A stretch of DNA of 64,000 nt from Thiotrichales bacterium (GCA_018658305.1 JABHVM010000011.1:3551-67550), one strand, 5' to 3'; counted from the stretch's first letter, positions 33,572 through 50,616 are shown. The notes: generated from the sequence alone by a model not told the origin. Program-made: numbers and translations.

Positions 33572-34015
33572 ATGATGCAATATAAAGAGACAGCTGTAAC
33601 ACCACAAGGATGGATATTAATTTTTATCTGTTGGTTAATTGCAATGGGCGCACTATTTGGGAGCCTCTTTTTTAGTGAGGTAATGGGGCTGAAGCCATGT
33701 GTTCTCTGTTGGTACCAGCGTATCTTTATCTATCCACTAGCCATTCTATTTCTAGTTGGTATGTTTCCATTAGATCGCTCAGTAGTGCGTTACACTTTAC
33801 CTTTAGCAACTTTTGGTTGGCTCTTCGCAGTATACCACTATCTGCTCTACTCAGGATATATTCCAGAGAGCTTGCAGCCGTGCAGTAAGGAGCTCTCCTG
33901 TGCTGAAATAAATTTAGAGTTAATGGGGTTTGTTACCATCCCAATGCTATCTATTCTATCTTATAGCGCTATTATCACTCTTCTACTCATATTTAAGAAA
34001 AGGAACACCTTATGA
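33572..34015 (+). CDS. disulfide bond formation protein B-like (DsbB/BdbC)
   Basis: Four TM helices and the Cys pairs CVLCWYQR and CSKELSC. Confidence 0.6.
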   Translation: MMQYKETAVTPQGWILIFICWLIAMGALFGSLFFSEVMGLKPCVLCWYQRIFIYPLAILFLVGMFPLDRSVVRYTLPLATFGWLFAVYHYLLYSGYIPESLQPCSKELSCAEINLELMGFVTIPMLSILSYSAIITLLLIFKKRNTL

Positions 34016-34665
34016 AAAATAAATTTATTGTTGCAGCTGTAGCAATTCTATTTGTCGGACTCTTTATCGCCGCCGCTGATCTCTACAACAATCAAAAAAA
34101 TAGCTCCTTAAATAGTGCAACTTTAGAAAATATTGAGTATATACAGCGAGATTACTCTCCAACACTTGGCCCAGTAGATGCTAAAGTGACAATTGTTGAG
34201 TTCTTCGATCCAGCCTGTGGAACCTGTCGCTCCTTCTATCCATTAGTTAAACGCATAATGAGTGAAAATGAAGGTAGAGTAAACTTAGTCTTGCGCTATC
34301 TACCTCTGCACAATGGTTCAGATGTGATAATCACCATCTTCGAAGCGGCTCGTCTACAAGGACTCTTCTGGGAGACGCTAAAACTAGCATATAAAAGACA
34401 AGATGCTTGGGTGGTTAACCACATCTCTATACCTGCAAAGTTGTGGGGACAGCTTGATGGAATTGGACTGGATATGGATAAGTTAGCTGTAGATATGAAG
34501 AGCGTAGAGATTGCTAGACGAGTTAAACAAGATCTTGCTGATGCTAAACAGCTTAAAGTTAACAAAACCCCAGGTTTTTTCGTGAATGGCAAACCGCTAA
34601 TCAATTTTGGCTATAAACAACTCCAGCAACTAGTAGCATCAGAAATTGATGAAAAATATCCCTAG
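34012..34665 (+). CDS. DsbA-like thiol:disulfide oxidoreductase
   Basis: TM anchor, the thioredoxin motif DPACGTCRSF, and a 4-nt overlap with dsbB. Confidence 0.65.
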   Translation: MKNKFIVAAVAILFVGLFIAAADLYNNQKNSSLNSATLENIEYIQRDYSPTLGPVDAKVTIVEFFDPACGTCRSFYPLVKRIMSENEGRVNLVLRYLPLHNGSDVIITIFEAARLQGLFWETLKLAYKRQDAWVVNHISIPAKLWGQLDGIGLDMDKLAVDMKSVEIARRVKQDLADAKQLKVNKTPGFFVNGKPLINFGYKQLQQLVASEIDEKYP

Positions 34666-34711
34666 CCCCCCAGGAGGCAATCTTTTGCCTGTCGGCAATT
34701 CACCTTGTGAA

Positions 34712-34743
34712 CGCAACTGCCTAAATGGCAGTTGTAGTGTTAC
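34712..34743. repeat. second copy of the 32-bp hairpin repeat (inverted relative to 24536-24568)
   Basis: Same 32-mer; it lies 47 bp after the dsbA stop, ahead of a T-run. Confidence 0.7.
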
Positions 34744-34858
34744 AAAGCATTACAAAAACCCCATTTTTTGACATCGTCTATTTACATTCCTCCCGTATAC
34801 TAACCGTTCCTGAGATATTACGGTATTTCAATTATATTAGTTTAGGAGCATAAAAACA

Positions 34859-35290
34859 GTGTATAAAAAATTGATATTCACTCTTATCATGATGGGTTCT
34901 CTATTTAGCGGATTACTATTCGCCCATGGTGATTATGAAGAAGGAGAGAAGGTTACAATCTCTAATCTTAAAAATAATGCAGTCGTGACCAGTCCAGTAA
35001 GAGTACTTTTCTCTGCGCCTAAATTAAAAATAACTGCTGCAGGGGTAGATAAACACAACGCAGGACATTTTCACTTGATGGTTGATGTGGATGCGGATAG
35101 ACAACTAGATGAGCCGATGCAGGAGTCTAAAAATCATATTAGACTCTCTAATGGTGAGCAAGAAACAGTGCTCGAACTATCGTTAGGAAAACATACGCTA
35201 CAGCTGATAGTCGCTGATGAGGAACATACCCATTTTGAAAACTTGATCTCACCAAAAATTACGATCTATGTAGAGTCACAGTCTAATTGA
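34859..35290 (+). CDS. secreted DUF4399-like protein (His-rich HFHL motif)
   Basis: Signal peptide plus GHFHLMVDVD; the family assignment is from memory of the motif only. Confidence 0.4.
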   Translation: MYKKLIFTLIMMGSLFSGLLFAHGDYEEGEKVTISNLKNNAVVTSPVRVLFSAPKLKITAAGVDKHNAGHFHLMVDVDADRQLDEPMQESKNHIRLSNGEQETVLELSLGKHTLQLIVADEEHTHFENLISPKITIYVESQSN

Positions 35291-35441
35291 TCACAATATT
35301 AATTTGATCGTTTTACCGATATATTTTCTTCTTCGTTCTTTAGGGTAAAACGATTATCTGATCTTCGTCTATTTCATGCGAAGCGCTTAGCTCACGATAC
35401 GAGCTACTTTTAACTATGTTGATAAACTAAGGAGTAGTACG

Positions 35442-35738
35442 ATGAAGATGATGATAACCGCAGCAGCCATACTAATGGCTTTACCAGTTTTTGCAGATAG
35501 CGAGCACCCTGTAACAGCGCAACAAGCGCCCATGATGCAAGGTCAGCAGGGGATGATGAACCCTCAGATGATGCAACAGATGAGACAGCAGAGAGCCATG
35601 AATCCACAGATGATGCAAGGTATGATGGGGCAGCAGATGATGGTATCAAAGCAGGCGCATATGGCAAAAATGGAAGGGCATATGGCAGGGATTGATGCCT
35701 CTCTCAAAGAGCTAGTTGAGCTCCAGCGCAGACGATAG
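35442..35738 (+). CDS. periplasmic Met/Gln-rich protein, putative Cu(I)-binding metallochaperone
   Basis: Signal peptide followed by repeated MxxM/MMQ motifs and HMAKMEGHM; 1 kb upstream of copA. Confidence 0.5.
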   Translation: MKMMITAAAILMALPVFADSEHPVTAQQAPMMQGQQGMMNPQMMQQMRQQRAMNPQMMQGMMGQQMMVSKQAHMAKMEGHMAGIDASLKELVELQRRR

Positions 35739-35758
35739 TCGGTGCTAAACAAAGCGGT

Positions 35759-36151
35759 ATGAGTATGAGTTTTTTTGCTATCCTCTTGTTGTCACTCGTT
35801 CTCTCTGGCTGCGATATATTCGACCCAGAAAGTATTAGAGCGCGTAATTTTCTTCCACCTCCCACTTATCAGGGGAGTGTGGAGAGAGGGGAAGTCAATT
35901 ATAAAAATAACTGTGCACGCTGTCATGGCGTTGATATGGCTGGAACGGCAGAAGGTCCTCCGCTTATGAATAAAACTTATGGCTCTTCACACCATGCGGA
36001 TCTCTCGTTTTATCATGCAGTCAAAAATGGAGTTAAGCAGCACCACTGGAAATATGGAGATATGCCAATGTTGACTGGGATCAGCCCAGAAGAGGTGAGT
36101 GATATTGTTGCATTTGTTAGGTTTCAGCAGCAACTCAGAGGCATTAAGTAA
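35759..36151 (+). CDS. monoheme cytochrome c lipoprotein
   Basis: Lipobox LSGCD; CARCH heme site. Confidence 0.65.
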   Translation: MSMSFFAILLLSLVLSGCDIFDPESIRARNFLPPPTYQGSVERGEVNYKNNCARCHGVDMAGTAEGPPLMNKTYGSSHHADLSFYHAVKNGVKQHHWKYGDMPMLTGISPEEVSDIVAFVRFQQQLRGIK

Positions 36152-36257
36152 GTATGAAGGAGACTGATATGGTGGTAGAATTTCCACTATAATCGACTCA
36201 ATTTTAGCTGTAGTTGTAGTTTTAGTCAGCAATAAAAATATTTTAGGATGAAAAGAG

Positions 36258-36758
36258 ATGGATAAAAAAGTAGTTGTATCGATTGTTCTTATGTTGGCTG
36301 TTTTAGGTTTAGTAGTGATGCAAGCATCTCAACAACCTAATCAGCAGGAGAATCAAAAGATAAGCCAACAGACATACCAACAGACAACAGATAGTAATAT
36401 TAATAATGGCACGGTAGAGCGCTGGTATACTCAACAGCAAGTGGCACAAGGGGCAGATATTTTCAAGACTAACTGTGCAGCCTGTCACGGACCAGAAGCG
36501 GCATCTATCCCTAACTGGCGAGAGCCTGATGAGAGTGGTAACTATCCTCCTCCACCATTAGATGGATCGGCTCATGCTTGGCACCACTCCTTAGCACTTT
36601 TACAGAAGACAGTTCGAGAGGGCGGGGCTGCCGTTGGTGGGCAGATGCCACCCTTCAAAGATCTCCTATCGATAAAGGAGATTGATGCGGTTCTTGCTTG
36701 GGTTCAGACCCACTGGAATGATAAAGTTTATCAGATGTGGAGTGAGCGGAATGGCTAA
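36258..36758 (+). CDS. periplasmic cytochrome c (SAHAWHH-motif family)
   Basis: Signal peptide; CAACH; [10 protein letters not shown]; MPPF. Confidence 0.65.
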
Positions 36759-39015
36759 AGAGACGCGCCTCTCTATCTCTGGAATGATGTGCGCTGGTTG
36801 CCTCTCCTCCGTTGAGCAGGCGTTGCAGGGGGTTGAAGGGGTAGAGTCGGCAGCAGTTAATCTTGGTGAGAGAAGCGCAATTGTTGAGGGAGAAGCTTCT
36901 GTTGAAGCACAGATCGCTGCAGTAAAAGAGGCAGGGTTCGGGGCGGCAGAGTTGGTCACCCTTGCAGATGAGCAAGCAAAAGAGCAAGCGGAGGCACGCG
37001 AGTACCAAAAATTGTGGTGGCGCGTGATCTCTGCTGGTGGGGCTGGTCTCACGCTATTTGTGGCAAGTATGGGTGGGTTTCTTCCTAGCATAGAAAACGG
37101 GCAGCCTATCTGGCTTGCGATTAGCGCTATCACTCTGCTGATTCTCATCTTTGTTGGTGGGCACTTCTTCAGCGGAGCGTGGGTAACGCTTAAAAATCGG
37201 CGCGGCAATATGGATACCCTAGTCGCAATGGGTACAGGCACCGCTTGGCTCTACTCCACCATCATCGTTCTCTATCCTGATTTAGTTCCATCTTTGGCTC
37301 GTCACGCCTATTTTGAAGCGGCAATTATTATTGTCGCACTGGTCTCGCTCGGCTCTGCGTTGGAGAGTAGAGCTCGGAGCAAGACCTCTTCTGCGATAAA
37401 AGCGTTGATTGGGCTGCAACCTAAAACGGCTCGGGTGCTACGCAATGGCGAGGAGCTTGATCTTCCGCTAGAGGAGGTTGGGTTAGATGAGACGCTACGG
37501 GTTAGACCTGGTGAAAAAATCCCATTAGACGGAGTGGTGTTAGAGGGGAGCTCTTATGTTGATGAATCAATGCTGACGGGTGAACCGATACCAGTTGCCA
37601 AGGAAGATGGGGGGCAAGTTGTAGGTGGAACTATCAACGGCTCTGGAACTTTTATAATGCGCACAACCCATATCGGCAGAGAGACGGTGTTGGCGCAGAT
37701 TGTAGAGCTAGTGCGCAAGGCACAGTCGAGCAAGCCAGAGATCGGGCGCTTGGTTGATAAAATCGCCGCCATCTTTGTGCCGATTGTGATCACCATCGCT
37801 GCCGTAAGTTTTGCGCTCTGGCTCTGGTTAGGACCAGAGCCGCAATTCAGTTACGCGATGGTGGCAGCGATGACAGTATTGGTGATCGCCTGTCCTTGTG
37901 CGCTCGGGCTGGCAACCCCAATTTCGATTATGGTGGGTGTCGGGCGTGCCGCAGGGATGGGGATTCTGATTCGTAATGGTGAGGCGCTACAACAAGCCGA
38001 GAAGGTGACCACAGTTATGTTCGACAAGACTGGTACGATTACTGAGGGAAATCCTCAACTGGTTAAAATTGCTATTGAAGTGAAGAGTGGAGGAGTTAAA
38101 AATAGTGAGGATGATCTGTTGAGATTGGCGGCAGCATTAGAGATAGGGTCAGAGCATCCGCTAGCTACTGCAATTCTTAATGAAGCGAAGGTGCGTGGAA
38201 TTTCAATTGAGGCTGCAGCTAATTTTCAGAGTATCACTGGAGAGGGGATTGAAGGCGAGGTGGCAGGTAAAAAATTACATCTCGGTAACCGCACTCTTAT
38301 GGAGAGAGATAAAATTATCTCCTCTCATAGTAATAGTGAAGAGAGTGAGAATAGAGCTGAAGAGTGGGGCGCAGCAGGAATTACTCCCATCTATCTCGCC
38401 CAAGAGGGAGAGCTGTTGGGTATGTTAGGTATTGCAGACCCGATCAAGGCAGGGGCGGAAGAGGCGATTGCAAACCTAAAAGAGATAGGGGTGAATGTGG
38501 TAATGCTTACTGGAGACAACCAGAAAACTGCTGAGGCAGTCGCTACTCAGATCGGACTTGATAAAAACTCCGTTGTTGCAGATCTACTTCCAGCAGAGAA
38601 GATCAAACAGGTCGCTCAATTACAGCAGCAGGGGGAGGTGGTAGCAATGGTCGGAGACGGCATAAATGATGCACCTGCACTCGCTCAGGCGGATGTGGGG
38701 ATAGCGATCGGTACTGGTACCGATATAGCCATTGAATCTGCCGATATCGCCCTAATGCACGGCGCACTGCAGGGGGTAGTTGATGCAATTACCCTCTCCA
38801 GAGCAACGATGGAAAATATCAAACAGAACCTCTTCGGGGCTTTTATCTACAACACGCTCGGTATTCCTATTGCCGCTGGGGTACTCTTCCCTCTGTTTGG
38901 AGTGATGCTAACCCCTATTGTTGCAGCTGCCGCTATGAGTATGAGTTCAGTAACAGTAGTTACCAATGCGCTTAGATTACGAAGTGTTAGGTTGTCAAAA
39001 GGAAGTAGAAGCTGA
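36751..39015 (+). CDS. copA: copper-translocating P1B-type ATPase
   Basis: N-terminal HMA GMMCAGC; CPC in TM6; phosphorylation site DKTGT; GDGINDAP. The start is the ATG at 36751, which overlaps the upstream stop; the ORF track opens at 36682. Confidence 0.85.
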
Positions 39016-39018
39016 GGA

Positions 39019-39543
39019 TTAATCATCCCAGCGTCCCACGCCAGGTATACGGACATCATGCTCGTTGAAAGATCCATCTGCTGCATTTAGGTGACAGCTT
39101 CCGCAGTTACTAAGTGAGCCGATTTTTGGGTTGTCGAGAAAACGGCGTGGAATCTCATCGTGTTCTTTTACAAAAGGACGGCTCTCTGTAATACGCAGTG
39201 GAATCTCACTATCTCCTTTGCGCCAGAATTGATACCAACGATCACTGCTGCCGTACTGTTGTAGATAGGCGCTGAGCTCTTTCTGTTCTTGCGGTGCGAG
39301 CTCGGCGTTGTCTCCGAAGTGGTTATCGAGAGAGCGCATCATATTCCCCCAAGATATTTTTCCTAGCAGGCTCGGTGGGTAGGCGATATGACAACTTCCA
39401 CACTCTTCACGGTACTGATTGTATTCACTACTGCTGCGCATATAGGAGCGATTTCCCCATTCATCACTATCTGCTAGGGTTGGACTGCTTAATAGTGTGG
39501 TCGCAATCAATAAAGTTGCTGCTTTTCTCTGATTTTTTTTCAT
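39019..39543 (-). CDS. periplasmic diheme cytochrome c
   Basis: Signal peptide; CGSCHIAY and CGSCHLNA. Confidence 0.65.
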   Translation of the reverse strand: MKKNQRKAATLLIATTLLSSPTLADSDEWGNRSYMRSSSEYNQYREECGSCHIAYPPSLLGKISWGNMMRSLDNHFGDNAELAPQEQKELSAYLQQYGSSDRWYQFWRKGDSEIPLRITESRPFVKEHDEIPRRFLDNPKIGSLSNCGSCHLNAADGSFNEHDVRIPGVGRWDD

Positions 39544-39648
39544 CTCTTTAATCTCCTGTTTTAGGTACTTCTCTATCGGTTAATAAATTCAAGTATCTCT
39601 CTTTTTTACTGTTTGAATTTTGCATAGTAAATAGCGTACAGGGTGAAC

Positions 39649-39732
39649 CTTAAGAGGGACTTAAGATTAGAATAAATGTTAATGGTTATCTTAAGATTCA
39701 CTTAAGGTTTGGTGTTTAGACTCTCTCTTATG
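39649..39732 (+). promoter_or_regulatory. conserved upstream element: four CTTAAG half-sites in two 11-bp-phased pairs, then GTTTAGACT and the caspase start codon
   Basis: CTTAAG at 39649, 39660, 39690 and 39701. The last 45 bp are about 80% identical to 42485-42528 and 45548-45590. Confidence 0.55.
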
Positions 39733-41034
39733 GTTCGTTTTCTACTGACACTACTGACTATTTTTTCACTTTCGCTATCTCCCCTCTTGCTGGGAGAGAT
39801 GGTAAATGTCGTCTATGCTGATGGTGACGGAGGCGATGGGGGGGACGGTGGAGATGGAGATGGAGATGGGGATGATGGAGGAGATGATGGAGGAGACGAT
39901 GGCGGTGATGATAGCGGAAGTGATGGTGGCAACGATGGTGGAGGAGATGATGGTGATGGTAGTAGTAGTGGTTCCGATGATGGGGGCGGCGATGACTTTT
40001 TCAGCGAAGAGTTTGTAGAGTGGATGAGTGAGAGTCAGGGCGGTTCAGGGATCGCTTTTTACAGCGCAGAAGAGAATCTGGAGTGGGTCACTCCTGAAGC
40101 GGAGCAGGCACTGATTGCCTCACATTGGAACCACTCACCACGACAGATGTTTGCCACTAAACCAGCCACTCAACCATCGACTCAGAAAGTAGCGGTTGAG
40201 ATCACAAAATCTCCATTTCCACACGACACTCTAAATCTAACCTATGCCAGAACAGTTGAAAATAGTGAAGATGATATTGCCGTCATTATCGGCAATGCCA
40301 ACTATCAGCAGTTTGGAGCCAAAGTACCTGATGTGACTCCCGCTTACGCTGATGCAGAGGCGTTCACCCGTTATGTGCGTGAAGGGTTGGGAGTGCGAGA
40401 AGGGAATATTATCCACTTGAAAGATGCAACCCAAGCGCAGATGATGCGTCTCTTTGGTACCGAAAAACATCCAAAAGGACAACTCTATGATTGGGTCAAA
40501 CCGCAACAGTCAAGAGTGACACTCTATTTTTCAGGGCATGGGGCCCCTGGGGTTAAGGCGAAAGAGAGCAACTATCTGGTGCCTGCCGATGCAGATGGAG
40601 CTCGACTTGCCCTCAACGGTTATCCGGTTGAAGAGCTTTACCAAAATCTTTCCAAGCTTAACGCCCGTTCAGTAACGGTGGTACTGGAGGCGTGTTTCTC
40701 AGGGGTGAGTCAAGATAGTCAAGTAGTTACCCACGCCTCACCGATCTTTGCGCAGCGCAAGCCGACCACCATTCCCAAAGAGATTACCGTGATCTCAGCT
40801 GGAGGTAGTGACCAGATCGCCTCTTGGGAACAGGATCGTTCTAATGGACTCTTCACTAAATACTACCTCTATGCGATGAGTGGCAAGGCAGACCATCCCC
40901 CTTATGGAAATGGTGACGGACGGGTGAGCCGTGATGAACTGCAACGCTATCTCGATAAAACCCTAAGTTACTGGGCACGCCGCTACTACGGGCGAGAGCA
41001 GGTGGCGCAGATTCAAGAAGGAAAGAAGTTATGA
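39709..41034 (+). CDS. secreted caspase-like cysteine protease (peptidase C14 / orthocaspase) with an N-terminal acidic Gly/Asp repeat region
   Basis: Signal peptide; about 60 aa of (D-G-G/D-D-G) repeats; caspase His/Cys dyad context YFSGHGAPG and VVLEACFSG. The alternative start is the ATG at 39730. Confidence 0.75.
   Translation: MVFRLSLMVRFLLTLLTIFSLSLSPLLLGEMVNVVYADGDGGDGGDGGDGDGDGDDGGDDGGDDGGDDSGSDGGNDGGGDDGDGSSSGSDDGGGDDFFSEEFVEWMSESQGGSGIAFYSAEENLEWVTPEAEQALIASHWNHSPRQMFATKPATQPSTQKVAVEITKSPFPHDTLNLTYARTVENSEDDIAVIIGNANYQQFGAKVPDVTPAYADAEAFTRYVREGLGVREGNIIHLKDATQAQMMRLFGTEKHPKGQLYDWVKPQQSRVTLYFSGHGAPGVKAKESNYLVPADADGARLALNGYPVEELYQNLSKLNARSVTVVLEACFSGVSQDSQVVTHASPIFAQRKPTTIPKEITVISAGGSDQIASWEQDRSNGLFTKYYLYAMSGKADHPPYGNGDGRVSRDELQRYLDKTLSYWARRYYGREQVAQIQEGKKL
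39817..39996 (+). repeat. in-frame GAT-GGN trinucleotide/hexanucleotide tandem repeat tract encoding the acidic linker
   Basis: About 180 bp of (GATGGN)n units; a slipped-strand expansion or contraction candidate. Confidence 0.7.
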
Positions 41035-41972
41035 GAAAAATGGTGATGAGAATGCCCATGCTACTGCTCTCAATTTTTATCCTAAGCGGTTGCGTCTCAA
41101 CGCCACCAATGCCTGAAATGAAAAAAGGGTATCTCACTCAACCTGCAACCCTCCCCCAATATCGTGCGGGAGACACCTTCATATTTAGTGATGGGAGTGT
41201 AGAAAAAGTCATTGCTGTTAGAGGAGAGAAGGTTGATTGGGAATCACGGGGAGGCGCTTTTCGTTACACGACATATCGAAACTTTATCCTCCCTAAACAG
41301 CAGTGGGAGACAGAGACAAAAGAGGTGGTGGTTCAATACAGTGGTGAGCGAAATATTCTCTGGCCGCTTAAGAGTGGAGAGTCTGAATATTTTCCAACAA
41401 CTGTTGTTGTAAATGACAAAGTTAATTTTTCTAAAAAATCTTATCTGCAGAGCTGGCGCTGCCAGGTAGGAGGGATCTACAAGATTACATTGAAAGCGGG
41501 TATATTTGATGTGCAGAAAATTGAGTGTGATCGCAATACCTTGATGGGGCGCTGGATGCAGACCCGTAGTTGGTTCTACGCTCCTGCACTGGGGCACTAT
41601 GTGCTCCGTCTCGATGAGTACGCCCCTACCTCCTCTCGTCGTCATATTCAGCGTAATAAAGAGTTGGTCGCCTACATTCCCTCGGATCAACATATAGCTT
41701 ATGGTGAGGGCGTCTCACCTGAATCCCACTTTCAGCACTCATTGGAGAGTCTCCCCTCTGGTGAAAGCAGTGAATGGAGAGATGAGAGTGATCGCTATGC
41801 ACGAACCATCACCATGCTTCGCACCTTTCGTGCAGATGGAGGGAGATACTGTCGTGAGTATCGAATGGTGAGAAGAGATGATGGACGAATTCAAAGTTAT
41901 CTTGGAAAGTCCTGTCGTGGCGAAGATGGGCGCTGGCACATCGCCGTAGCAGCCCTGTCAACGCACACATGA
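41031..41972 (+). CDS. hypothetical lipoprotein translationally coupled (ATGA) to the caspase gene
   Basis: Lipobox ILSGC; 4-nt overlap; C-terminal Cys/Arg-rich repeats (RYCREY...KSCRGEDGRW). Confidence 0.5.
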   Translation: MRKMVMRMPMLLLSIFILSGCVSTPPMPEMKKGYLTQPATLPQYRAGDTFIFSDGSVEKVIAVRGEKVDWESRGGAFRYTTYRNFILPKQQWETETKEVVVQYSGERNILWPLKSGESEYFPTTVVVNDKVNFSKKSYLQSWRCQVGGIYKITLKAGIFDVQKIECDRNTLMGRWMQTRSWFYAPALGHYVLRLDEYAPTSSRRHIQRNKELVAYIPSDQHIAYGEGVSPESHFQHSLESLPSGESSEWRDESDRYARTITMLRTFRADGGRYCREYRMVRRDDGRIQSYLGKSCRGEDGRWHIAVAALSTHT

Positions 41973-42007
41973 GGGGCGTGCGTTAAGCCTCCCTCTCTAT
42001 GCTTTTA

Positions 42008-42226
42008 TTAGCCTGCTCTGGATTCTCTAACTGCATCTAATATATCCTGAGTAGTTGCTCTGGTTTTAATGCCAGACACATCAAAGGGTGATTTTTCTTT
42101 TTTTGTTTTTGGAACTATCGAAAAAATAGAGCCGTCTCTTCGCCGAATTTCAACCTTTTCATTTTGAGCAGTGTTTAATAATTCGGACAGATTTTGCCGA
42201 GCTTCTGAATAAGTGAATACTTTCAT
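42008..42226 (-). CDS. Phd/YefM-family antitoxin homolog (orphan, with no adjacent toxin)
   Basis: The N-terminus MKVFTYSEARQNLSELL matches the YefM signature; no RelE/YoeB-like ORF lies on either side. Confidence 0.5.
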   Translation of the reverse strand: MKVFTYSEARQNLSELLNTAQNEKVEIRRRDGSIFSIVPKTKKEKSPFDVSGIKTRATTQDILDAVRESRAG

Positions 42227-42484
42227 GCTTCTACTCCACAACTTCGATTTTAAGATCATATGCGACTTGTTTCATTCTTTTATCCAGAGTTATAAGCGGA
42301 CATGAGAACGGTGTTTGTCAAGGTAGTTGTCTGTTTTATTCATGCTGCTTTCAATAAAACAAGCTCTTCAGCACTGTACTTTTATTTTCTACTTAGATGT
42401 AGGGCAGATAGAGATTGATGACAAACCGATGTTGGTTTGCAACCTATAGCACTAACGGCTAAAGAGCGAAAAGGAGGTAAGCGC

Positions 42485-42528
42485 CTTAAGGTTCTCTTAA
42501 GGTTGAGCGTTTAGACTTTATCATTATG
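42485..42528 (+). promoter_or_regulatory. second copy of the CTTAAG direct-repeat element, immediately upstream of and including the start codon of the 42526 gene
   Basis: CTTAAGGTTCT-CTTAAGGTTGAGCGTTTAGACTTTATCATTATG. Confidence 0.55.
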
Positions 42529-43398
42529 ATGCGTACATTACTCAATCTGTCTGTTGATCCTCTTGACTCTCTTATTATTTGGGGGCTTGCTTTGGTCTTG
42601 ATGAGCAGTGCAGAGGCGGTGATAACGGTTGAATCAGGCGCTTACATCTTCACCGCAGAGATGAGTGCCGAAGAGGGGTGTGGTCAAGCAGTTGAGCGGA
42701 TAAAGTTAGAGAATATAGCGGAGCAGTGTGGTGCACATCTCTCTGGTGGCAAGTTAAGGGCGCTGGGTGATGGATATGACCTTCTTGATCAACTCTATTT
42801 TGAGTCAACTGCTGGACATCTGACCCAGTTCAAAATAAAGAAAAAAGAGGTGATACTGATTAGCACTGGATCAGAAGCCCCCCTCTTTCGTTGCAGTGTA
42901 GAGGCGGCGTTAGAGGTGAGTTGCAATCAAGGAGAGAGGAATCCTTACTTTGCACCGCTCTTTACGGAACAGATCTCCCTTAATCAGCTCTCTTTCAGAG
43001 AGGGGGACGAAATGAAGATTTTCATTGATGTGCCGCAACCGATGAGTATAACGGTTCTTCAACTGCTCCCATATTTAGAGAGCGGTGAACAGGTTTGGCG
43101 AATCTTTCCAAACTTATACCAGCCAGAGGGGTGGGTGGAGAAGGCGGAGCAGTTATCCATTCCAAATCAAGAGGGTGAATATCAGTTAATTGCCAAGCTT
43201 CCTATCGGCAAAAATCGTGTAGTTGAGGAGCTGGTGGTGATTGCAATTGATGAGAAAGGAGATAAAGATGAAAAAATTAAGTTCCCAGATCAGATGAGCG
43301 TGGAGCAGTTTCATCAACTGCTCGCTGAGATTCCACTCAATCAACGCAGAGAAAAATTTATCCCTTATGAAATCATTAAAGAGAGGTCTGTCCAATGA
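42526..43398 (+). CDS. hypothetical secreted protein
   Basis: Signal peptide; 4-nt overlap with the downstream lipoprotein gene. Confidence 0.45.
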   Translation: MMRTLLNLSVDPLDSLIIWGLALVLMSSAEAVITVESGAYIFTAEMSAEEGCGQAVERIKLENIAEQCGAHLSGGKLRALGDGYDLLDQLYFESTAGHLTQFKIKKKEVILISTGSEAPLFRCSVEAALEVSCNQGERNPYFAPLFTEQISLNQLSFREGDEMKIFIDVPQPMSITVLQLLPYLESGEQVWRIFPNLYQPEGWVEKAEQLSIPNQEGEYQLIAKLPIGKNRVVEELVVIAIDEKGDKDEKIKFPDQMSVEQFHQLLAEIPLNQRREKFIPYEIIKERSVQ

Positions 43399-44795
43399 AG
43401 AGCGTTATTCCTATTAGAGGTATCACTGTTGCCATGCTCGCACTGTTAGCAATCAGCGGCTGTTCGACTAGATATGTTGACCTGGGTGAAGGAGAGACTC
43501 CTTCCTCCAGTGCACTCTCTACCGAGGTGTTGTTTGAAGTGCACGATGCGTTCTATAACCCCACCCCACTTTGTGTAGCAGTGCTTCCACTGCAGGGGGA
43601 TGCAGATACTCTAAGACGAAGCCAAGTGCGCCGCACACTCTATGCTCATCTATCTCCACGAGGTTTTCGTGATATTGAGATCGCACGAGTGGACTATCTT
43701 ATTCAGAACAATGGGCTTGATGTTGAGCAGGTCGAGGATAGGGCAGCGTTAGGGCAGCTTCTAAACTGTGATGCATTTTTGATGGGAGAGGTGAGTGGCG
43801 GCTCATCTTTCTACGGAGTCTACTCCAAAGTGGAGGCGGCAGCCAAGTTACAGATGGTGAGAGCGGTTGATGGGGAACTATTATGGGAGTCTCAACACCA
43901 CGCCACTCAGCAGGATGGGGGGCTTCCGTTCTCACCGATTGGAATTGCTGCGGGTCTCTTCGATGCAGCAAGAAATGTTGAGAATGAACAGATCTTGAGG
44001 GTGATGGATGACCTCGCTCGACGAATGATGAGCACTATACCAGATGTGATGGTCAACTATAGCGATGATGAGGCTCTTAACCATTTTACCTTAGAAACAG
44101 AAGATCGCTGGAAGGGTGATCTTGATCAATATCTCGCTTCTAGTTCTGGGGCTGCTAGAGAGAGTAAACTGCGTAGACTCCTTGCAGAGCAGTCCTTAAC
44201 GACCTCTCAACAGGAGGAGGTCTATCAGAGGTTGACTACTGCTAGCGGTAAGGCGAGAGACTATCGAGCGTGGGGTCGTAATCGATTGAAACAAGGCTAC
44301 TATGAGGGGGCGTTGGAACAGTTTGAACGGGCGATTGAGATTAAAGAAAGTGATAGTGAGGCATGGTTTCTGAAAGGTCGAGTCCTAACCAAACTCAATC
44401 AGCTTGAGCAAGCGGATAGCAGTTTTGTCAAGGCGATTGCCCACAATCCAGATCGTGATGATTACTATGCGGCACTCGGTTACATTAATTCACGGAGAGG
44501 CGATATGGCACGGGCAAGAGCCGCCTATCAGATGGCGATTAAATATAATCCAGAGAGCGGCTTTGCTTGGTACAACCTTGCAGTGAGTGACTATAACGAG
44601 GGTAACTACCGAGATGCTACCGAGCAGTTTTTCAATGCTGGAAGCTTCTATCTCAAGCAGGGGCGAGTTGATCGCGTGGAACAGGTGATTCTAGATCTAA
44701 AGGATCTCAATCAGAAGAGAGATGGAAGCCGCACCGTACTGAAGTATATAGCGCGTCTGGAGAGCGATCTTGAGGTGTGGGTTGATAGTAAATAA
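43395..44795 (+). CDS. lipoprotein with an N-terminal DUF799/GNA1162-like (LpoB/CsgG-fold-like) domain and C-terminal TPR repeats
   Basis: Lipobox ISGCS; the VAVLPL...DAFLMGEV pattern; three to four TPR units near the C-terminus. Confidence 0.5.
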   Translation: MKSVIPIRGITVAMLALLAISGCSTRYVDLGEGETPSSSALSTEVLFEVHDAFYNPTPLCVAVLPLQGDADTLRRSQVRRTLYAHLSPRGFRDIEIARVDYLIQNNGLDVEQVEDRAALGQLLNCDAFLMGEVSGGSSFYGVYSKVEAAAKLQMVRAVDGELLWESQHHATQQDGGLPFSPIGIAAGLFDAARNVENEQILRVMDDLARRMMSTIPDVMVNYSDDEALNHFTLETEDRWKGDLDQYLASSSGAARESKLRRLLAEQSLTTSQQEEVYQRLTTASGKARDYRAWGRNRLKQGYYEGALEQFERAIEIKESDSEAWFLKGRVLTKLNQLEQADSSFVKAIAHNPDRDDYYAALGYINSRRGDMARARAAYQMAIKYNPESGFAWYNLAVSDYNEGNYRDATEQFFNAGSFYLKQGRVDRVEQVILDLKDLNQKRDGSRTVLKYIARLESDLEVWVDSK

Positions 44796-44895
44796 GTAGC
44801 ACTATCTCCCTTGCTAAGAGAGAACAGGGAGGTATGTAGACTCTATTAATAGGCATTAAGTTTTTGATATTTTTTAATTGATTAGGAGAAGTAAG

Positions 44896-45537
44896 ATGAA
44901 GATAGATGATAGAGAGCATAATTTAGTCCGTAACGCAGTCACCGCAGTTTTATTAAGTAGTGTACTGGTAGGATGCTCCTCCATCCCTGAAGTGGGTACC
45001 CCAGCATTTAGCCAGTATAAAAAAGAGCAGCGCGAAGAGCAACGGGTCGAGGTGATGGAGGAGATGCCAGACTGGTTTATGGAGCCTCCAGTCGGAGATG
45101 ACTATCTCTATGTCGCCGCTACTGCCATCTCTCCCGACCTGCAGATGTCAATAGACAAAGCGGTGATGGATGGTAAAACTAATCTCGCTGATCGATTGAA
45201 TAGCTTGATGAGCGGAAAACTTAAACGCTATGTAGAGGAGAGCGGTAATGTAGAGAATATAGAATTTGTACAGCAGATGGAACGGATTAGCCAATCCCTC
45301 TTTACCGATGTCAACACCTCTGGTTACCGAGTAACTGAGAAGAAGTTGATCAAAGTGCAGAAGGGCTACCGCGCCTTTGTATTGATCGAATACCCGCTAG
45401 GTAATGCTAATTATGTACTAGTGGAAGGGGTTAAGAAAAACCAGAAAGCACATGCCAAACTTAGAGCAAGTAAAGCATTTGCTGCATTGGAAGATGAAAT
45501 TGAAGCCGCTAGAGGCGTAACCAAAAACTCTAAATAA
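44896..45537 (+). CDS. lipoprotein, tentatively LPP20/FlgP-like
   Basis: SD AGGAG then ATG at 44896; lipobox LVGCSS. The family call is tentative. Confidence 0.4.
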   Translation: MKIDDREHNLVRNAVTAVLLSSVLVGCSSIPEVGTPAFSQYKKEQREEQRVEVMEEMPDWFMEPPVGDDYLYVAATAISPDLQMSIDKAVMDGKTNLADRLNSLMSGKLKRYVEESGNVENIEFVQQMERISQSLFTDVNTSGYRVTEKKLIKVQKGYRAFVLIEYPLGNANYVLVEGVKKNQKAHAKLRASKAFAALEDEIEAARGVTKNSK

Positions 45538-45547
45538 TTACCCACTC

Positions 45548-45590
45548 TTTAAGACTCCCTTAAGGTTGGAGTATTACTCTATCCGTTATG
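45548..45590 (+). promoter_or_regulatory. third copy of the CTTAAG direct-repeat element, ending in an ATG that opens only a 17-codon ORF, about 150 bp upstream of the RR/HK operon
   Basis: TTTAAGACTCC-CTTAAGGTTGGAGTATTACTCTATCCGTTATG. Confidence 0.5.
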
Positions 45591-45740
45591 AATTTACAGA
45601 TAATAGAAGAGAGCGGGGCAGGGCGAATTCAACTCTGATAAAGTTACGGCAATGAATAGTGAATTTAGAGTTAGTATGGATTGTCTAGTCGATAGTGCAC
45701 TGCGCAAGCAAAACACAGCTGCAAAACTGTTTATCCGAAA

Positions 45741-46406
45741 ATGAGAATTTTATTAATAGAGGATGATCCACTACTCGGTGATGCTACTGAGGCAGGGTTG
45801 AGCCATGATGGTTACACAGTCGAATGGATGCACAATGGAGATCACGGCGACTCTGCGCTCAGAAATGAGAGCTTTGATGGGGTGGTGCTAGATCTTGGGC
45901 TACCTGGTAAGAGCGGGTTGGATATTCTACAGGCAATGCGTGGACGAAACGATACAACCCCAGCGCTGATTCTAACCGCTAGAGATTCAATAGAAGATCG
46001 AATCAAAGGGTTAGATAGTGGTGCTGATGATTATCTCATTAAACCGTTTGATTTAGATGAGTTGAGTGCGCGTCTAAGAGCGTTAATTCGGCGTGCAGCT
46101 GGACGGAGCTCTCCACTGATTGAGATTGCCACAGTTGTGCTTGATCCCGCCACCCATCTGGTTACTTTAAATAATGAAACGGTGAATCTCTCTCAAAGAG
46201 AGTTCTCACTACTTCAACTCTTAATGGAGGCAGCTCCCAGGGTGCTCTCACGCAGCTATCTGGAGGAGCATCTATACAGCTGGGAGAGTGATGTTGGGAG
46301 TAATGTACTAGAGGTGCATATCCACAATCTACGCAAAAAACTGGGAAAAACTTTTATCCATACGATCCGTGGGGTTGGTTATAGGGTTGAAGAGGAGAGC
46401 GAATGA
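45741..46406 (+). CDS. OmpR-family response regulator (QseB/CusR-like)
   Basis: Receiver domain (LLIEDD...LDLGLPG) plus a winged-helix domain. Confidence 0.85.
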   Translation: MRILLIEDDPLLGDATEAGLSHDGYTVEWMHNGDHGDSALRNESFDGVVLDLGLPGKSGLDILQAMRGRNDTTPALILTARDSIEDRIKGLDSGADDYLIKPFDLDELSARLRALIRRAAGRSSPLIEIATVVLDPATHLVTLNNETVNLSQREFSLLQLLMEAAPRVLSRSYLEEHLYSWESDVGSNVLEVHIHNLRKKLGKTFIHTIRGVGYRVEEESE

Positions 46407-47731
46407 ACTCTATCCGTAATCGCTTACTCTTGCTATTACTCGGTGTATTTACCTCTGTTTGGGTGGTGATGATGGGTTATATCTGGCAAAACACAGAACA
46501 CGAAATTGAAGAAGTTTTTGATGCACAGTTGGCTCAAGCATCACTGGTGCTATTGGATTTGACGCAGCATGAAATTACAGAGATGGATCTAGACGATTTC
46601 CGTTCGGATCTATTTGGCGCAGAACCTGTGCATGAATATGAGAAGAAAGTAGCATTTCAAGTTTGGCGTGGTGATAAGTTGTTGCTGCGCTCCAATAGTG
46701 CGCCCGCTACTCCTATGAGCAGAGTGGCAGGTTATAGTAGCGGAGAGATGGGGGGTGAGCGTTGGCGTTTTTTGCATCGAGTTGATACGACAGGTGTGTT
46801 GATCGCGATTGTGGGCGAACAGTACGAAATGCGCAATGAGTTAGAGGAGAAGATTATACTGCAGCTCTTCTGGCCCATTACCATAGCACTGCCACTGCTT
46901 GCATTGCTAATGACACTTGGAATTACTCGAGGGCTCCATCCGCTCAAGAGTCTTGCTGCTGAAGTGGCATCCCGTTCACCGACTCAGCTTGAAGAGATTA
47001 CCGCCAAACAGGTTCCACAGGAAGTCTCCCCACTCATTGATAGCATTAATACTCTATTAAAAAGAGTGGCGCAGACGATTGAGGCAGAGCACCGCTTTAC
47101 TGCGGATGCTTCCCACGAGCTGCGTACTCCACTCGCTGCAATTAAGACACAAGCACAGGTTGCAAAGCGGACAGAAGGAGAGGTCAGTGATAGCGCTTTA
47201 GATAAGGTGGTTGAGGGGGTAGATCGAACCTCACACTTAGTGGAGCAGCTCCTTACTTTGACACGCTTAGATCCTAGTGTGGTACAGCGTTGTTTTGAGG
47301 AGGTTGATCTAACAGTTATTTCAGAACGAGTGATGGCAGAGCTGGCGCCAACTGCGTTGGTTAAAAATATTGAGCTCACAATGGTTGGGCAGCGTGGAGA
47401 AGTAGTTAATGGTTCAGCTCCACTGCTGCAGATACTATTAAGAAATCTGATTGAGAATGGTATCAACTACACCCACTTTGGTGGAAAAGTAATCGTTACA
47501 GTTAACACAGAGGGGGAGGAAATAGTATTAAAAGTTAGTGATAATGGCTTGGGTATTCCAGAGGATATTCGACAGCGCGTTTTTGACCGTTTCTATCGGA
47601 TAGAGGGGAGTAGTGTGCCAGGTTCAGGGCTAGGTCTCTCTATCGTAAAGAGAGTTGTTGATATTCACGCTGGTACCGTTGAAATAGAAGGAGAGCAACC
47701 TCACGGGACAAGAGTAGTTATTGAAATTTAA
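46403..47731 (+). CDS. sensor histidine kinase (QseC/CusS-like, periplasmic sensor)
   Basis: Two TM helices, H-box SHELRTPLAAI, HATPase G-boxes, and a 4-nt overlap with the RR gene. Confidence 0.85.
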   Translation: MNSIRNRLLLLLLGVFTSVWVVMMGYIWQNTEHEIEEVFDAQLAQASLVLLDLTQHEITEMDLDDFRSDLFGAEPVHEYEKKVAFQVWRGDKLLLRSNSAPATPMSRVAGYSSGEMGGERWRFLHRVDTTGVLIAIVGEQYEMRNELEEKIILQLFWPITIALPLLALLMTLGITRGLHPLKSLAAEVASRSPTQLEEITAKQVPQEVSPLIDSINTLLKRVAQTIEAEHRFTADASHELRTPLAAIKTQAQVAKRTEGEVSDSALDKVVEGVDRTSHLVEQLLTLTRLDPSVVQRCFEEVDLTVISERVMAELAPTALVKNIELTMVGQRGEVVNGSAPLLQILLRNLIENGINYTHFGGKVIVTVNTEGEEIVLKVSDNGLGIPEDIRQRVFDRFYRIEGSSVPGSGLGLSIVKRVVDIHAGTVEIEGEQPHGTRVVIEI

Positions 47732-47732
47732 C

Positions 47733-49181: not shown

Positions 49182-49190
49182 TCAATTTTC

Positions 49191-50485: not shown

Positions 50486-50616
50486 AAAGCCTGATAGGAG
50501 CGGTTAAGGTAATACCCTTTATTGCCCTCACTTAGAGGGGTCGTTATTATTTATTGTGTCGCTTGATGTTGGAAGCGTTTTGCAGCGTTTATCGTGATAT
50601 GCTATACTCAATGATT

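Follow-up and report, generated by a model that had tools for sequence, protein, structure and literature searches.

A caspase-like protease with a predicted export signal and the lipoprotein encoded directly behind it form the first two genes of a five-gene cassette in the window analysed here, a stretch of 64,000 nucleotides from a Thiotrichales bacterium. The unit, which is well supported, comprises the caspase, a YmcC-fold/17-kDa-antigen-type lipoprotein, an exported DUF4384 protein, a TPR lipoprotein and a small lipoprotein, and all five products are predicted from their sequences to be exported. The sequence-only reading that drew attention to the locus had described a two-gene system, a view that has to be widened to the cassette plus an adjoining two-component system. 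It had further held that an exported caspase paired with a dedicated lipoprotein is not a described system. A literature search found no description of the five-gene cassette, which upholds the claim for the cassette but not for export as such, as the export of prokaryotic metacaspases had been noted earlier (PMC3501461).

The exported caspase-like protease

Features lie on the plus strand unless stated otherwise. The caspase-like (Peptidase_C14) gene (39730..41034) encodes 434 residues from its likely ATG. The open reading frame called by program begins at TTG 39709, and the span 39709-41034 had originally been assigned to the gene; we have corrected the likely start to ATG 39730 (MVRF...), as found in the 97%-identical protein P0001, and the TTG is disfavoured. 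The residue numbers His277, Cys329, Asp215 and Glu327 nevertheless follow the frame opened at 39709. Pfam Peptidase_C14 (PF00656) matches residues 190-394 with an E-value of 6.4e-12 (46.1 bits against a cut-off of 21.4 bits). The His/Cys dyad, formed by His277 (SGHG) and Cys329 (EACFSG), is intact as had been proposed, with both residues invariant among 51 aligned homologues. The catalytic caspase-fold domain (40276..41031) combines p20-like and p10-like parts in a single chain and contains a GNGDGxVxxxE loop.

An AlphaFold model of the protease has pLDDT values >90 across the catalytic domain, with a disordered loop (334-348) following Cys329, and places His277 and Cys329 at the C-terminal ends of strands 269-279 and 321-329, respectively. 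When this model was compared with the PDB using Foldseek, the best match was the MALT1 paracaspase (E 3e-12), and caspases-8/3/9, CED-3 and Yca1 were also found. A search of the caspase profile against the sequences of solved structures gave no match at E <= 0.001, including to any C14 structure; the family motif YyaGHGAP does align on YYAGHGY of MALT1, in a match that is itself sub-significant (E 0.15). Assignment as a C14-type cysteine protease with an intact dyad and a paracaspase/metacaspase-like fold is well supported by sequence and model, and the enzyme is predicted to be catalytically competent. The S1-pocket residues of TbMC2 are Asp95 and Asp211 (PMC6426788). In a purely motif-based alignment, the invariant Asp215 and Glu327 (conserved in at least 90% of homologues) occupy positions equivalent to the S1-pocket acids of metacaspases, and because acidic residues stand at these positions the protease is predicted to cut after Arg/Lys. 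The score against NCBIfam NF047832, the EACC1-associated caspase type, falls far below threshold (51.8 bits against a 140-bit cut-off), and neither EACC1 nor NTPase partners were found among the neighbouring genes. Fusion to an S41 (Prc/CtpA-type) peptidase that has PDZ domains is seen in some paralogues of the caspase.

The N-terminus of the protease reads as a Sec-type signal peptide (39730..39819), with MVR, a hydrophobic core and a VYA/D cleavage site, and the AlphaFold model has a helix at residues 3-22 within this segment. An AxA/D-type site is kept in the caspase orthologues, in agreement with the Sec signal that had been claimed for the protein, and 97 of the 113 members of the caspase subfamily carry an N-terminal hydrophobic segment. 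The prediction that the protease is Sec-exported is therefore well supported. Immediately past the VYA/D site, the predicted mature protein begins with an Asp/Gly(/Ser) tract of 59 residues (39820..39996) made up of 28 Gly, 24 Asp, 6 Ser and 1 Asn and nothing else, which is predicted to be disordered (pLDDT <50) and whose DNA consists of imperfect tandem repeats of 6-30 nt. Comparable tracts behind an AxA-type site occur in 12 of the 120 top homologues, which argues against a chance low-complexity run, and are present in all cassette-linked caspases; the acidic tract of about 60 residues noted at the outset is thus confirmed. A lipobox-like motif was found in 71/101 caspase paralogues without the tract, compared with 2/12 of those that bear it. 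With an acidic S1 pocket predicted, a pseudo-substrate role for the tract was considered and judged unlikely.

The coupled lipoprotein and the five-gene cassette

The lipoprotein gene (41031..41972) overlaps the protease gene as ATGA, stop and start sharing these four nucleotides just as the earlier account had it. Its 313-residue product carries an LSGC lipobox with Cys21, invariant among relatives in three alignments, and Val at +2. A β-barrel of the YmcC fold (approximately residues 30-216), structurally similar to YmcC, BF2203 and BDI_3050, is followed by a helix and a C-terminal 17kDa_Anti_2-type domain (approximately residues 245-310), and two Cys pairs are conserved (144/166 and 274/295). 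The match of the C-terminal domain to 17kDa_Anti_2 (PF16998) is weak, at 21.1 bits against a cut-off of 26.6 bits; other members of the family score 26.6-33.3 bits, at or above the cut-off, and P0123 is annotated with the domain. A homologue of the same C-terminal domain forms the periplasmic part of ECF anti-sigma factors (E 1e-20). While the 313-residue lipoprotein predicted initially is indeed present, its supposed Cys/Arg-rich repeats are the two halves of one small domain (YCREY...SCRGEDGRW). A conserved Arg-rich cleavage loop was rejected as a general feature of the lipoprotein, being absent from distant cassette-linked orthologues.

The lipoprotein belongs to a large family, with 230 clusters at E <= 1e-30 and 2051 matches in an exhaustive profile search, where a word-index homologue search had retrieved only 11 proteins. 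Most members occur without a caspase, their neighbours being ECF sigma/anti-sigma pairs or CHASE histidine kinases, and the lipoprotein is therefore not caspase-specific by ancestry. Ten long family members were inspected for fusion to a caspase; none was found, the fusions seen being to PG_binding_1. The lipobox, the conserved Cys pairs and these PG_binding_1 fusions point to an envelope location for the family.

Pairing of the two genes extends well beyond the window. The lipoprotein is encoded directly downstream of the caspase in the window and in loci L001-L011, L071-73 and L075. The genes overlap by 4 nt in six loci (the window, L002, L005, L007, L008 and L009) and are separated by a gap of 1-2 nt in L010, L071 and L072; the junction is ambiguous in L011 and a gap of 26-71 nt is present in L006. 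The pairing was sought in homologous loci as a check on the claim that the lipoprotein is a dedicated neighbour, and it was present beside 7/7 Asp/Gly-tract caspases with readable context, drawn from Gamma-, Beta- and Alphaproteobacteria. The lipoprotein adjoins 0/3 caspase paralogues that lack the tract, and adjacency thus tracks the Asp/Gly tract perfectly.

All five genes are contiguous and in the same order in L002, L004, L006, L008, L009 and L075, while one clade (L071-73) has the permuted order DUF4384, TPR, small lipoprotein, caspase, lipoprotein. In the window, an orphan antitoxin gene separates the cassette halves. The third gene (42526..43398) encodes the exported DUF4384 protein of 290 residues (Pfam DUF4384, E 1.3e-10) and lies immediately after the lipoprotein gene in L002, L004, L006, L009 and L075. 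The fourth (43395..44795), conserved in all cassettes, encodes the TPR lipoprotein, which has an ISGC lipobox, a weakly GNA1162-like N-terminal domain, C-terminal TPR repeats and a weak match to NlpI (E 3.9e-5). The fifth (44878..45537) encodes the small lipoprotein with an LVGC lipobox, likely of 213 residues from ATG 44896. At 71-80% identity across orthologous cassettes it is the most conserved member, and a Thiotrichales MAG encodes a protein that matches it at 100%. No Pfam family could be assigned to it even at E <= 10, and it may be LPP20/FlgP-like. A search of solved structures returned no relatives of either the small lipoprotein or the DUF4384 protein.

The intergenic region between the caspase gene and a divergent dihaem cytochrome c (DHC) gene (39019..39543, minus strand; Pfam DHC, E 1.3e-35) holds two copies of a CTTAAG-N5-CTTAAG direct repeat (39649-39665 and 39690-39706, within 39649..39706). 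A third copy (42485..42501), followed by GTTGAGCGTTTAGACT, stands ahead of the DUF4384 gene, and a fourth, TTTAAG-N5-CTTAAG (45548..45564), lies between the cassette and a response-regulator gene. The repeat, which has 4 matches in the window where 0.35 would be expected by chance, precedes both cassette halves and the adjacent OmpR-type regulator gene. It also lies immediately ahead of the caspase gene in L002, L006 and L009, and it is kept upstream of the cassette even where the proteins of the loci share only about 62% identity. It is probably a binding site for an OmpR-family response regulator. Downstream of the proximal copy (39690-39706) come GTTTGGTGTT, a -10-like TAGACT (39717-39722) and, 7 nt on, the ATG; we infer that TAGACT may act as the -10 element of a leaderless start at ATG 39730. 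As a scan for consensus promoters and terminators gave nothing above chance, and did not call the -10 of the caspase gene, this promoter model rests on the conserved repeat.

Beyond the cassette lie genes for an OmpR-family response regulator (45741-46406; Response_reg and Trans_reg_C) and a QseC-like sensor kinase (46403-47731; 2CSK_N, HAMP, HisKA and HATPase_c). Orthologues of this pair adjoin the cassette in five to six loci, including L002, L005, L006, L009 and L011, making the pair (45741..47731) candidate regulators of the cassette. In L002, L006 and L009 a complete SHP operon (cytochrome b, SHP, DHC, response regulator and kinase) is divergent from the cassette, and the DHC gene of the window is a remnant of such an operon.

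Possible roles of the cassette

The reading that we prefer, held tentatively and rated just short of an even call, is that of a five-gene envelope cassette in which the periplasmic protease has the lipoprotein as its docking or regulatory subunit and which the response regulator and kinase switch via the repeats. The protease would be soluble in the periplasm. Presumably made in matching amounts, the coupled lipoprotein may dock or regulate it at the inner face of the outer membrane; this placing of the lipoproteins is suggested because none of the three has Asp at +2 (the E. coli +2 rule, from which the host may differ). Most paralogues in the caspase subfamily would instead be tethered through a lipid anchor of their own. 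By analogy with NlpI-Prc and LbcA-CtpA, the TPR lipoprotein, the DUF4384 protein and the small lipoprotein may be adaptor or substrate-recruiting parts, and the likeliest substrates would be cell-envelope proteins. The OmpR/QseC-type system probably switches the cassette on through the CTTAAG-N5-CTTAAG sites, which would stand in for a -35 element. The Asp/Gly tract has no role in this docking explanation, and the genomic context of the lipoprotein family, with its anti-sigma factors and CHASE kinases, fits a role in signalling or as a substrate at least equally well.

The lipoprotein could instead be the substrate of the protease, its cleavage or release altering signalling via the adjacent sensor kinase, an unlikely reading but one of some weight. 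The caspase would then act like a site-1 protease, because the C-terminal domain of the lipoprotein copies the periplasmic domain of ECF anti-sigma factors (the E 1e-20 match above). That relatives of the lipoprotein adjoin ECF sigma/anti-sigma pairs and CHASE kinases, and that a two-component system is linked to the cassette, is consistent with such a switch, as is the abundance of basic residues in close lipoprotein orthologues (SRRH, RRDDGR) given the basic P1 preference predicted for the protease. The Arg-rich loops are, however, not kept in the distant cassette-linked lipoproteins of Terasakiella and L072, and a 1:1 coupled substrate would be unusual. We consider it still less likely that the protease is held by, or acts on, a lipoprotein carrying an anti-sigma-type sensor domain, with an envelope cue leading to cleavage and to feedback on a QseC-like regulon. 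In such an extracytoplasmic caspase signalling switch, the tract might be a latch responsive to Ca2+ or other metals.

The downstream, overlapping and periplasm-facing position of the lipoprotein gene also resembles the arrangement of effector-immunity pairs, in which case the exported protease would be antagonistic or self-damaging and the lipoprotein a dedicated periplasmic inhibitor shielding the producer. A very weak, non-significant fold likeness to cystatin- and latexin-type inhibitors (E 0.05-0.07) leans the same way. We regard this as improbable: the neighbouring genes have no secretion-system or polymorphic-toxin features, PADLOC gave nothing beyond a generic caspase match, with no system proteins for four of the five products, and the lipoprotein family is widespread without caspases. 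The cassette is moreover kept with three more genes across classes, with nothing to mark it as a variable toxin/immunity locus. Since PADLOC found no defence system, a role in defence or abortive infection was likewise dropped.

Export of all five products, as predicted, would also suit a sortase-like role, in which the clan CD protease is the transpeptidase or maturase of a surface structure built of the three lipoproteins and the DUF4384 protein, comparable with gingipain-like PorU of type IX secretion. YmcC/GfcB-type lipoproteins, which the barrel of the coupled lipoprotein resembles, belong to polysaccharide-export operons, and the TPR lipoprotein is weakly similar to GNA1162-like and PilW/PorW-type lipoproteins. 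All of these similarities are nevertheless weak or at the level of the fold, and the cassette lacks an outer-membrane channel, polysaccharide genes and any gene for cargo that bears a sorting signal, leaving such a role very improbable. Mere gene adjacency with no functional link is hardly credible given the conservation of the pairing: the majority of the lipoprotein family has no caspase beside it, yet Gamma-, Beta- and Alphaproteobacteria alike retain the pairing, in most cases as a 4-nt overlap and even in permuted cassettes, and its presence matches that of the Asp/Gly tract without exception.

Bacterial caspase homologues are usually pictured as cytoplasmic cell-death or defence proteases. 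The whole caspase subfamily described here appears to act outside the cytoplasm, with one clade having four exported partners and its own regulator. The hosts of this clade are Gamma-, Beta- and Alphaproteobacteria of marine and sediment habitats, the window being from a marine sulfur-bacterium-type genome. Terasakiella sp. SH-1, whose genome is recorded under a strain name and not as a MAG, may be a cultured host. If the protease is active and controlled by the lipoprotein as in the docking or regulatory reading, a cysteine-protease arm would join envelope proteolysis, so far mostly the work of serine and metallo enzymes (Prc, CtpA, DegP). That reading would also provide a first functional handle for DUF4384 and for a large unannotated lipoprotein family, and might clear up why this family also accompanies anti-sigma factors and CHASE kinases. 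Should the signalling-switch reading hold, the cassette would bring a periplasmic equivalent of regulated proteolysis by caspases.

Comparison with known systems

The SHP operon has been described with a QseC-like sensor kinase, SK2, and the portions of that description consulted mention no caspase cassette (PMC2909971). The window keeps DHC and the response regulator and kinase, but the operon is broken up; in related loci, cytochrome b, DUF1924/SHP, DHC, response regulator and kinase are divergent from the cassette and the CTTAAG repeat lies in the shared intergenic region. Fusions of orthocaspases and trypsin-p20 proteins to DUF4384 have also been reported (PMC7475262, PMC6426788). Here, DUF4384 is in contrast a separate exported protein, and the dyad is of the active HC form as opposed to the QC/YS pseudo-variants. 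In Terasakiella, the gene for DUF4384 comes after one for a trypsin-TPR protein, close to the caspase pair, and the link between caspase and DUF4384 is one that the cassette shares with the fusions.

The structural relatives of the coupled lipoprotein, YmcC of E. coli (2in5), BF2203 (3fzx) and BDI_3050 (4fvs), are structural-genomics lipoproteins with 10-14% sequence identity to it, and they lack its C-terminal 17kDa_Anti_2-type domain. As YmcC-fold proteins have no known function, the match says little on mechanism. In the RseB-RseA system, proteolysis of an anti-sigma factor is controlled by a periplasmic protein. The likeness lies in a periplasmic barrel-type protein associated with an anti-sigma periplasmic domain: elsewhere, genes of the lipoprotein family come immediately behind an ECF sigma/anti-sigma pair, and the periplasmic domain of that pair and the C-terminal domain of the lipoprotein are homologues. 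The window locus differs in that a sigma/anti-sigma pair is absent, and Pfam and NCBIfam scans gave no relation of the lipoprotein to RseB, returning just the weak 17kDa_Anti_2 match.

NlpI-Prc of E. coli and LbcA-CtpA of Pseudomonas aeruginosa each consist of a soluble periplasmic protease and an outer-membrane lipoprotein adaptor. The cassette resembles them, as judged here from the genes, in joining a periplasmic protease with a lipoprotein and in including one of TPR type. It differs in having a clan CD cysteine protease in place of a serine S41 enzyme, in its five genes, and in that the coupled partner is a β-barrel/17-kDa-antigen-type lipoprotein rather than a TPR protein. The protease itself has the caspase-haemoglobinase fold of the MALT1 paracaspase, metacaspases and orthocaspases (MEROPS C14, clan CD), with which it shares the dyad on equivalent strand ends, the GHG motif and a single chain of p20-like and p10-like parts; by motif alignment it also has acids at the putative S1 positions. 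Unlike these proteins, it is without death-fold, Ig, NACHT, WD40 or GUN4 modules, carries a Sec signal and an Asp/Gly tract at the mature N-terminus, and, in its tract-bearing type, is encoded with four exported partner proteins.

The caspase-like protease and its lipoprotein neighbour

Motif, alignment and N-terminal evidence establish the product of ORF1 (39709-41034, + strand; 441 aa from a mechanical TTG start) as an exported, dyad-intact C14 protease at the level of sequence. It matched Pfam Peptidase_C14 above threshold (E 6.4e-12, residues 190-394) and carries the catalytic motifs SGHG (His277) and EACFSG (Cys329). Both residues were invariant across about 50 aligned homologues (40-98% identity), bearing out the intact His/Cys dyad of the sequence-only reading. 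The predicted Sec signal and Gly/Asp tract likewise hold: the N-terminus reads MVR, a hydrophobic core and VYA, followed by 59 residues consisting exclusively of Gly, Asp, Ser and one Asn. The true start is likely ATG 39730, as a metagenomic, 97%-identical homologue (P0001) begins there and TTG 39709 sits inside a conserved regulatory repeat.

The AlphaFold model is confident for the catalytic domain (pLDDT >90), with the tract and the loop following Cys329 (residues 334-348) disordered. The best fold match among solved structures was the MALT1 paracaspase (E 3e-12), followed by caspases-8/3/9, CED-3 and the yeast metacaspase Yca1. A sequence-level search of solved structures with the caspase family gave no significant similarity; a sub-significant alignment places the family motif YyaGHGAP onto MALT1 YYAGHGY. 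By motif comparison, Asp215 and Glu327 occupy the positions of two metacaspase S1-pocket aspartates, quoted for the Trypanosoma enzyme in PMC6426788, and on this basis cleavage after Arg/Lys is predicted. A conserved D...GNGDGxVxxxE loop, located between two helices in alignment and model, looks like an EF-hand-type loop; Pfam made no EF-hand call for it.

ORF2 (41031-41972, same strand; 313 aa) begins within the ORF1 stop through a shared ATGA, as previously read, and has an LSGC lipobox. Its structure model is very confident (pLDDT 93, pTM 0.86) and comprises an all-beta domain (about residues 30-216), a helix and a small beta domain. The assignment as a lipoprotein stands, while the supposed Cys/Arg-rich C-terminal repeats are two halves of this single small domain, which gave a weak 17kDa_Anti_2 match (21.1 bits, under cut-off). 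Cys144/Cys166 and Cys274/Cys295 are conserved in family alignments, a pattern that fits disulfides of an exported protein. Relatives numbered just 11 in a word-index search; a profile search against 1.84 billion representatives returned 230 clusters with E <= 1e-30, rising to 2051 with E <= 0.001. Long family members bear PG_binding_1 domains, and a domain scan of these found no caspase domain.

Conservation of the pair and the five-gene cassette

The lipoprotein gene is conserved next to the protease gene, mostly overlapping it. Among 65 genome loci obtained through an ORF2-family alignment search, those closest to the window lipoprotein (L006-L011) have a caspase gene directly upstream, and the loci found from the caspase side (L001-L005) show the same order. 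Gammaproteobacteria (Thiotrichales or Piscirickettsiaceae MAGs) are among the taxa, as are Burkholderiales MAGs. A third class is represented by the alphaproteobacterium Terasakiella sp. SH-1, whose lipoprotein (298 aa, 33% identical, E 3e-55) is encoded by a gene overlapping the caspase stop by 4 nt. The pair also occurs in a more distant clade (L071-L073) and on a Tara Oceans contig (L075). Every complete caspase adjoining the lipoprotein has the Asp/Gly tract. When loci were checked for absence of the pairing, the partner lay beside 7/7 tract-bearing proteins with readable context, in three proteobacterial classes, and beside none of the three tract-less paralogues P0015, P0034 and P0063. 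The pairing is thus conserved within one clade, and the tract marks exactly the cassette-linked clade. The lipoprotein proposed as a candidate partner is therefore a conserved neighbour; that the two proteins have no link is a less likely reading.

The wider subfamily (>700 proteins matched, many 55-60% identical over the catalytic core) is, as judged by a hydrophobic N-terminal segment in 97 of the 113 complete best homologues, exported. A lipobox-like motif occurs in 71/101 members lacking the tract versus 2/12 bearing it, and N-terminal modules vary (S41 peptidase with PDZ, SH3_3, Sel1). Asplund-Samuelsson et al. (PMC3501461) have remarked, in a general way, on exported prokaryotic metacaspases. 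Tract-less paralogues also occur as tandem or nearby duplicates (L074 4268-7689; L076 6001-7386 and 10858-12462), none with a cassette partner gene; one bears SH3_3 and adjoins an OmpA gene.

The real unit is five genes, a conserved exported set: caspase, lipoprotein, DUF4384 protein, TPR lipoprotein and small lipoprotein. This order, with adjacent genes abutting or overlapping, is found in L002/L003, L004/L006, L008, L009 and L075. In L071-L073 the genes are contiguous and permuted (DUF4384, TPR, small lipoprotein, caspase, lipoprotein), and L010 has the DUF4384, TPR and small lipoprotein genes running divergently from the pair. The Terasakiella locus has a chemoreceptor gene and a two-component system in its middle, with the pair on one side and an operon of trypsin-TPR, DUF4384 and TPR-lipoprotein genes on the other. 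All five products read as having a signal peptide or lipobox. Fusions of DUF4384 to orthocaspases and to trypsin-p20 proteins are known (PMC7475262, PMC6426788), and this independently ties the third gene to the protease. The small lipoprotein is the most conserved member; no family assignment was found for it, and the protein that matches it at 100% bears a Thiotrichales MAG annotation. In this lineage only (the window and near-identical L001), a 250-bp orphan Phd/YefM-type antitoxin gene (42008-42259, - strand; L001 2289-2507; Pfam 29.6 bits, cut-off 29.8) lies on the opposite strand between genes 2 and 3. No toxin ORF adjoins it, and the CTTAAG repeat and following 'gtttagact' before gene 3 look duplicated.

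Regulatory repeat and genomic setting

The regulatory repeat is conserved and a two-component system is linked to the cassette. The window has four copies of CTTAAG-N5-CTTAAG, where 0.35 would be expected: two upstream of the caspase gene (39649-39706), and one each upstream of the DUF4384 (42485-42501) and response-regulator (45548-45564) genes. In related loci it recurs as CTTAAG-N5-CTTAAG(GTTG) (L002 3961 and 9102; L004 8807; L006 4357; L009 6679). Although the proteins of L002, L006 and L009 are only about 62-67% identical to those of the window, these loci keep the repeat, followed by GGTTG, just upstream of the caspase gene. The 11-bp periodicity of the repeat is in keeping with OmpR/PhoB-type regulators, and the neighbouring OmpR-type regulator probably binds there. 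A T_hemolysin/AMP-binding/haem-oxygenase-like/short-chain dehydrogenase operon is likewise preceded by the repeat in L002 and L004, which suggests a wider regulon.

The OmpR-type response regulator and QseC-like sensor kinase (2CSK_N domain; window 45741-47731) adjoin the cassette in the window/L001, L002/L003, L005, L006, L009 and L011. In L002 (3-3936), L006 (80-4357) and L009 (4014-6639) they close an SHP-type operon that also has cytochrome b, DUF1924 and dihaem cytochrome c genes and is divergent from the cassette across a short common intergenic region. The window retains a remnant (39019-39543, - strand), with dihaem cytochrome c as the only SHP cytochrome gene and the two-component genes downstream of the cassette. 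PMC2909971 gives an account of the SHP operon and of its QseC-like kinase, "SK2".

Upstream of ORF1, the proximal repeat is followed by a -10-like TAGACT and, 7-8 nt on, the ATG, with no Shine-Dalgarno sequence. Start codons within about 20 nt of the repeats, again lacking Shine-Dalgarno sequences, recur in the window and related loci. We read the ORF1 start as leaderless or near-leaderless; a consensus promoter scan spoke neither for nor against this or the -10 element.

A probable copper or heavy-metal island (34012-39015) encodes a DsbA-like protein, a DUF4399 protein, two c-type cytochromes, a 98-aa exported Met/Gln-rich protein (35442-35738) and an HMA-domain P-type ATPase, whose mechanical start (36682) runs into the cytochrome gene before it and probably lies too far upstream. 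G+C is 0.45-0.49 over 36001-48000 versus 0.39-0.43 in the flanks, and the segment that carries the island, cassette and two-component system may therefore differ in origin. Beyond lie genes for a FIST-domain and a PAS/HATPase kinase-like protein (47733-50330, - strand) and an AAA-ATPase_like/PDDEXK_9 protein (50554-52209, + strand), all also present in L001.

Possible roles of the lipoprotein

We propose that the lipoprotein would serve as a docking or regulatory subunit of the protease at the outer membrane, where, given the lipobox counts, it may stand in for the protease-borne lipid anchor of most paralogues. The main rival is that its anti-sigma-like domain is a protease substrate in a proteolytic signalling step, attractive because the family is associated with anti-sigma factors and sensor kinases. 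In L012-L070 a member of the lipoprotein family occurs with no caspase within 8 kb, in two contexts. In one, its gene follows ECF sigma and anti-sigma factor genes, the periplasmic C-terminal domains of these anti-sigma factors being homologous to that of the lipoprotein family (HMM positions about 221-302, E about 1e-20). Many Alpha-, Gamma- and Deltaproteobacteria have this arrangement, with the sigma and anti-sigma genes immediately before the homologue in L012-L016, L021, L026, L028, L031, L033, L034, L048 and L057. In the other, it follows a CHASE-domain histidine kinase gene; PG_binding_1-bearing lipoproteins alternate with such kinases in L024, L030, L035, L038, L042, L045 and L046, with repeated pairs in L042 and L045. 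Less likely are a toxin-immunity reading of protease and lipoprotein and a sortase-like reading of the protease.

The cassette is conserved, coherent and approachable by experiment, with a function that we infer. The earlier view that this is not a described system agrees with the open-access literature searched, in which no account of the pairing or cassette was found. The protease itself belongs to a known family, and systems in which a lipoprotein controls periplasmic proteolysis are known as well. By analogy with NlpI-Prc and LbcA-CtpA, the other three cassette products (the DUF4384 protein, the TPR lipoprotein and the small lipoprotein) would act as adaptors.
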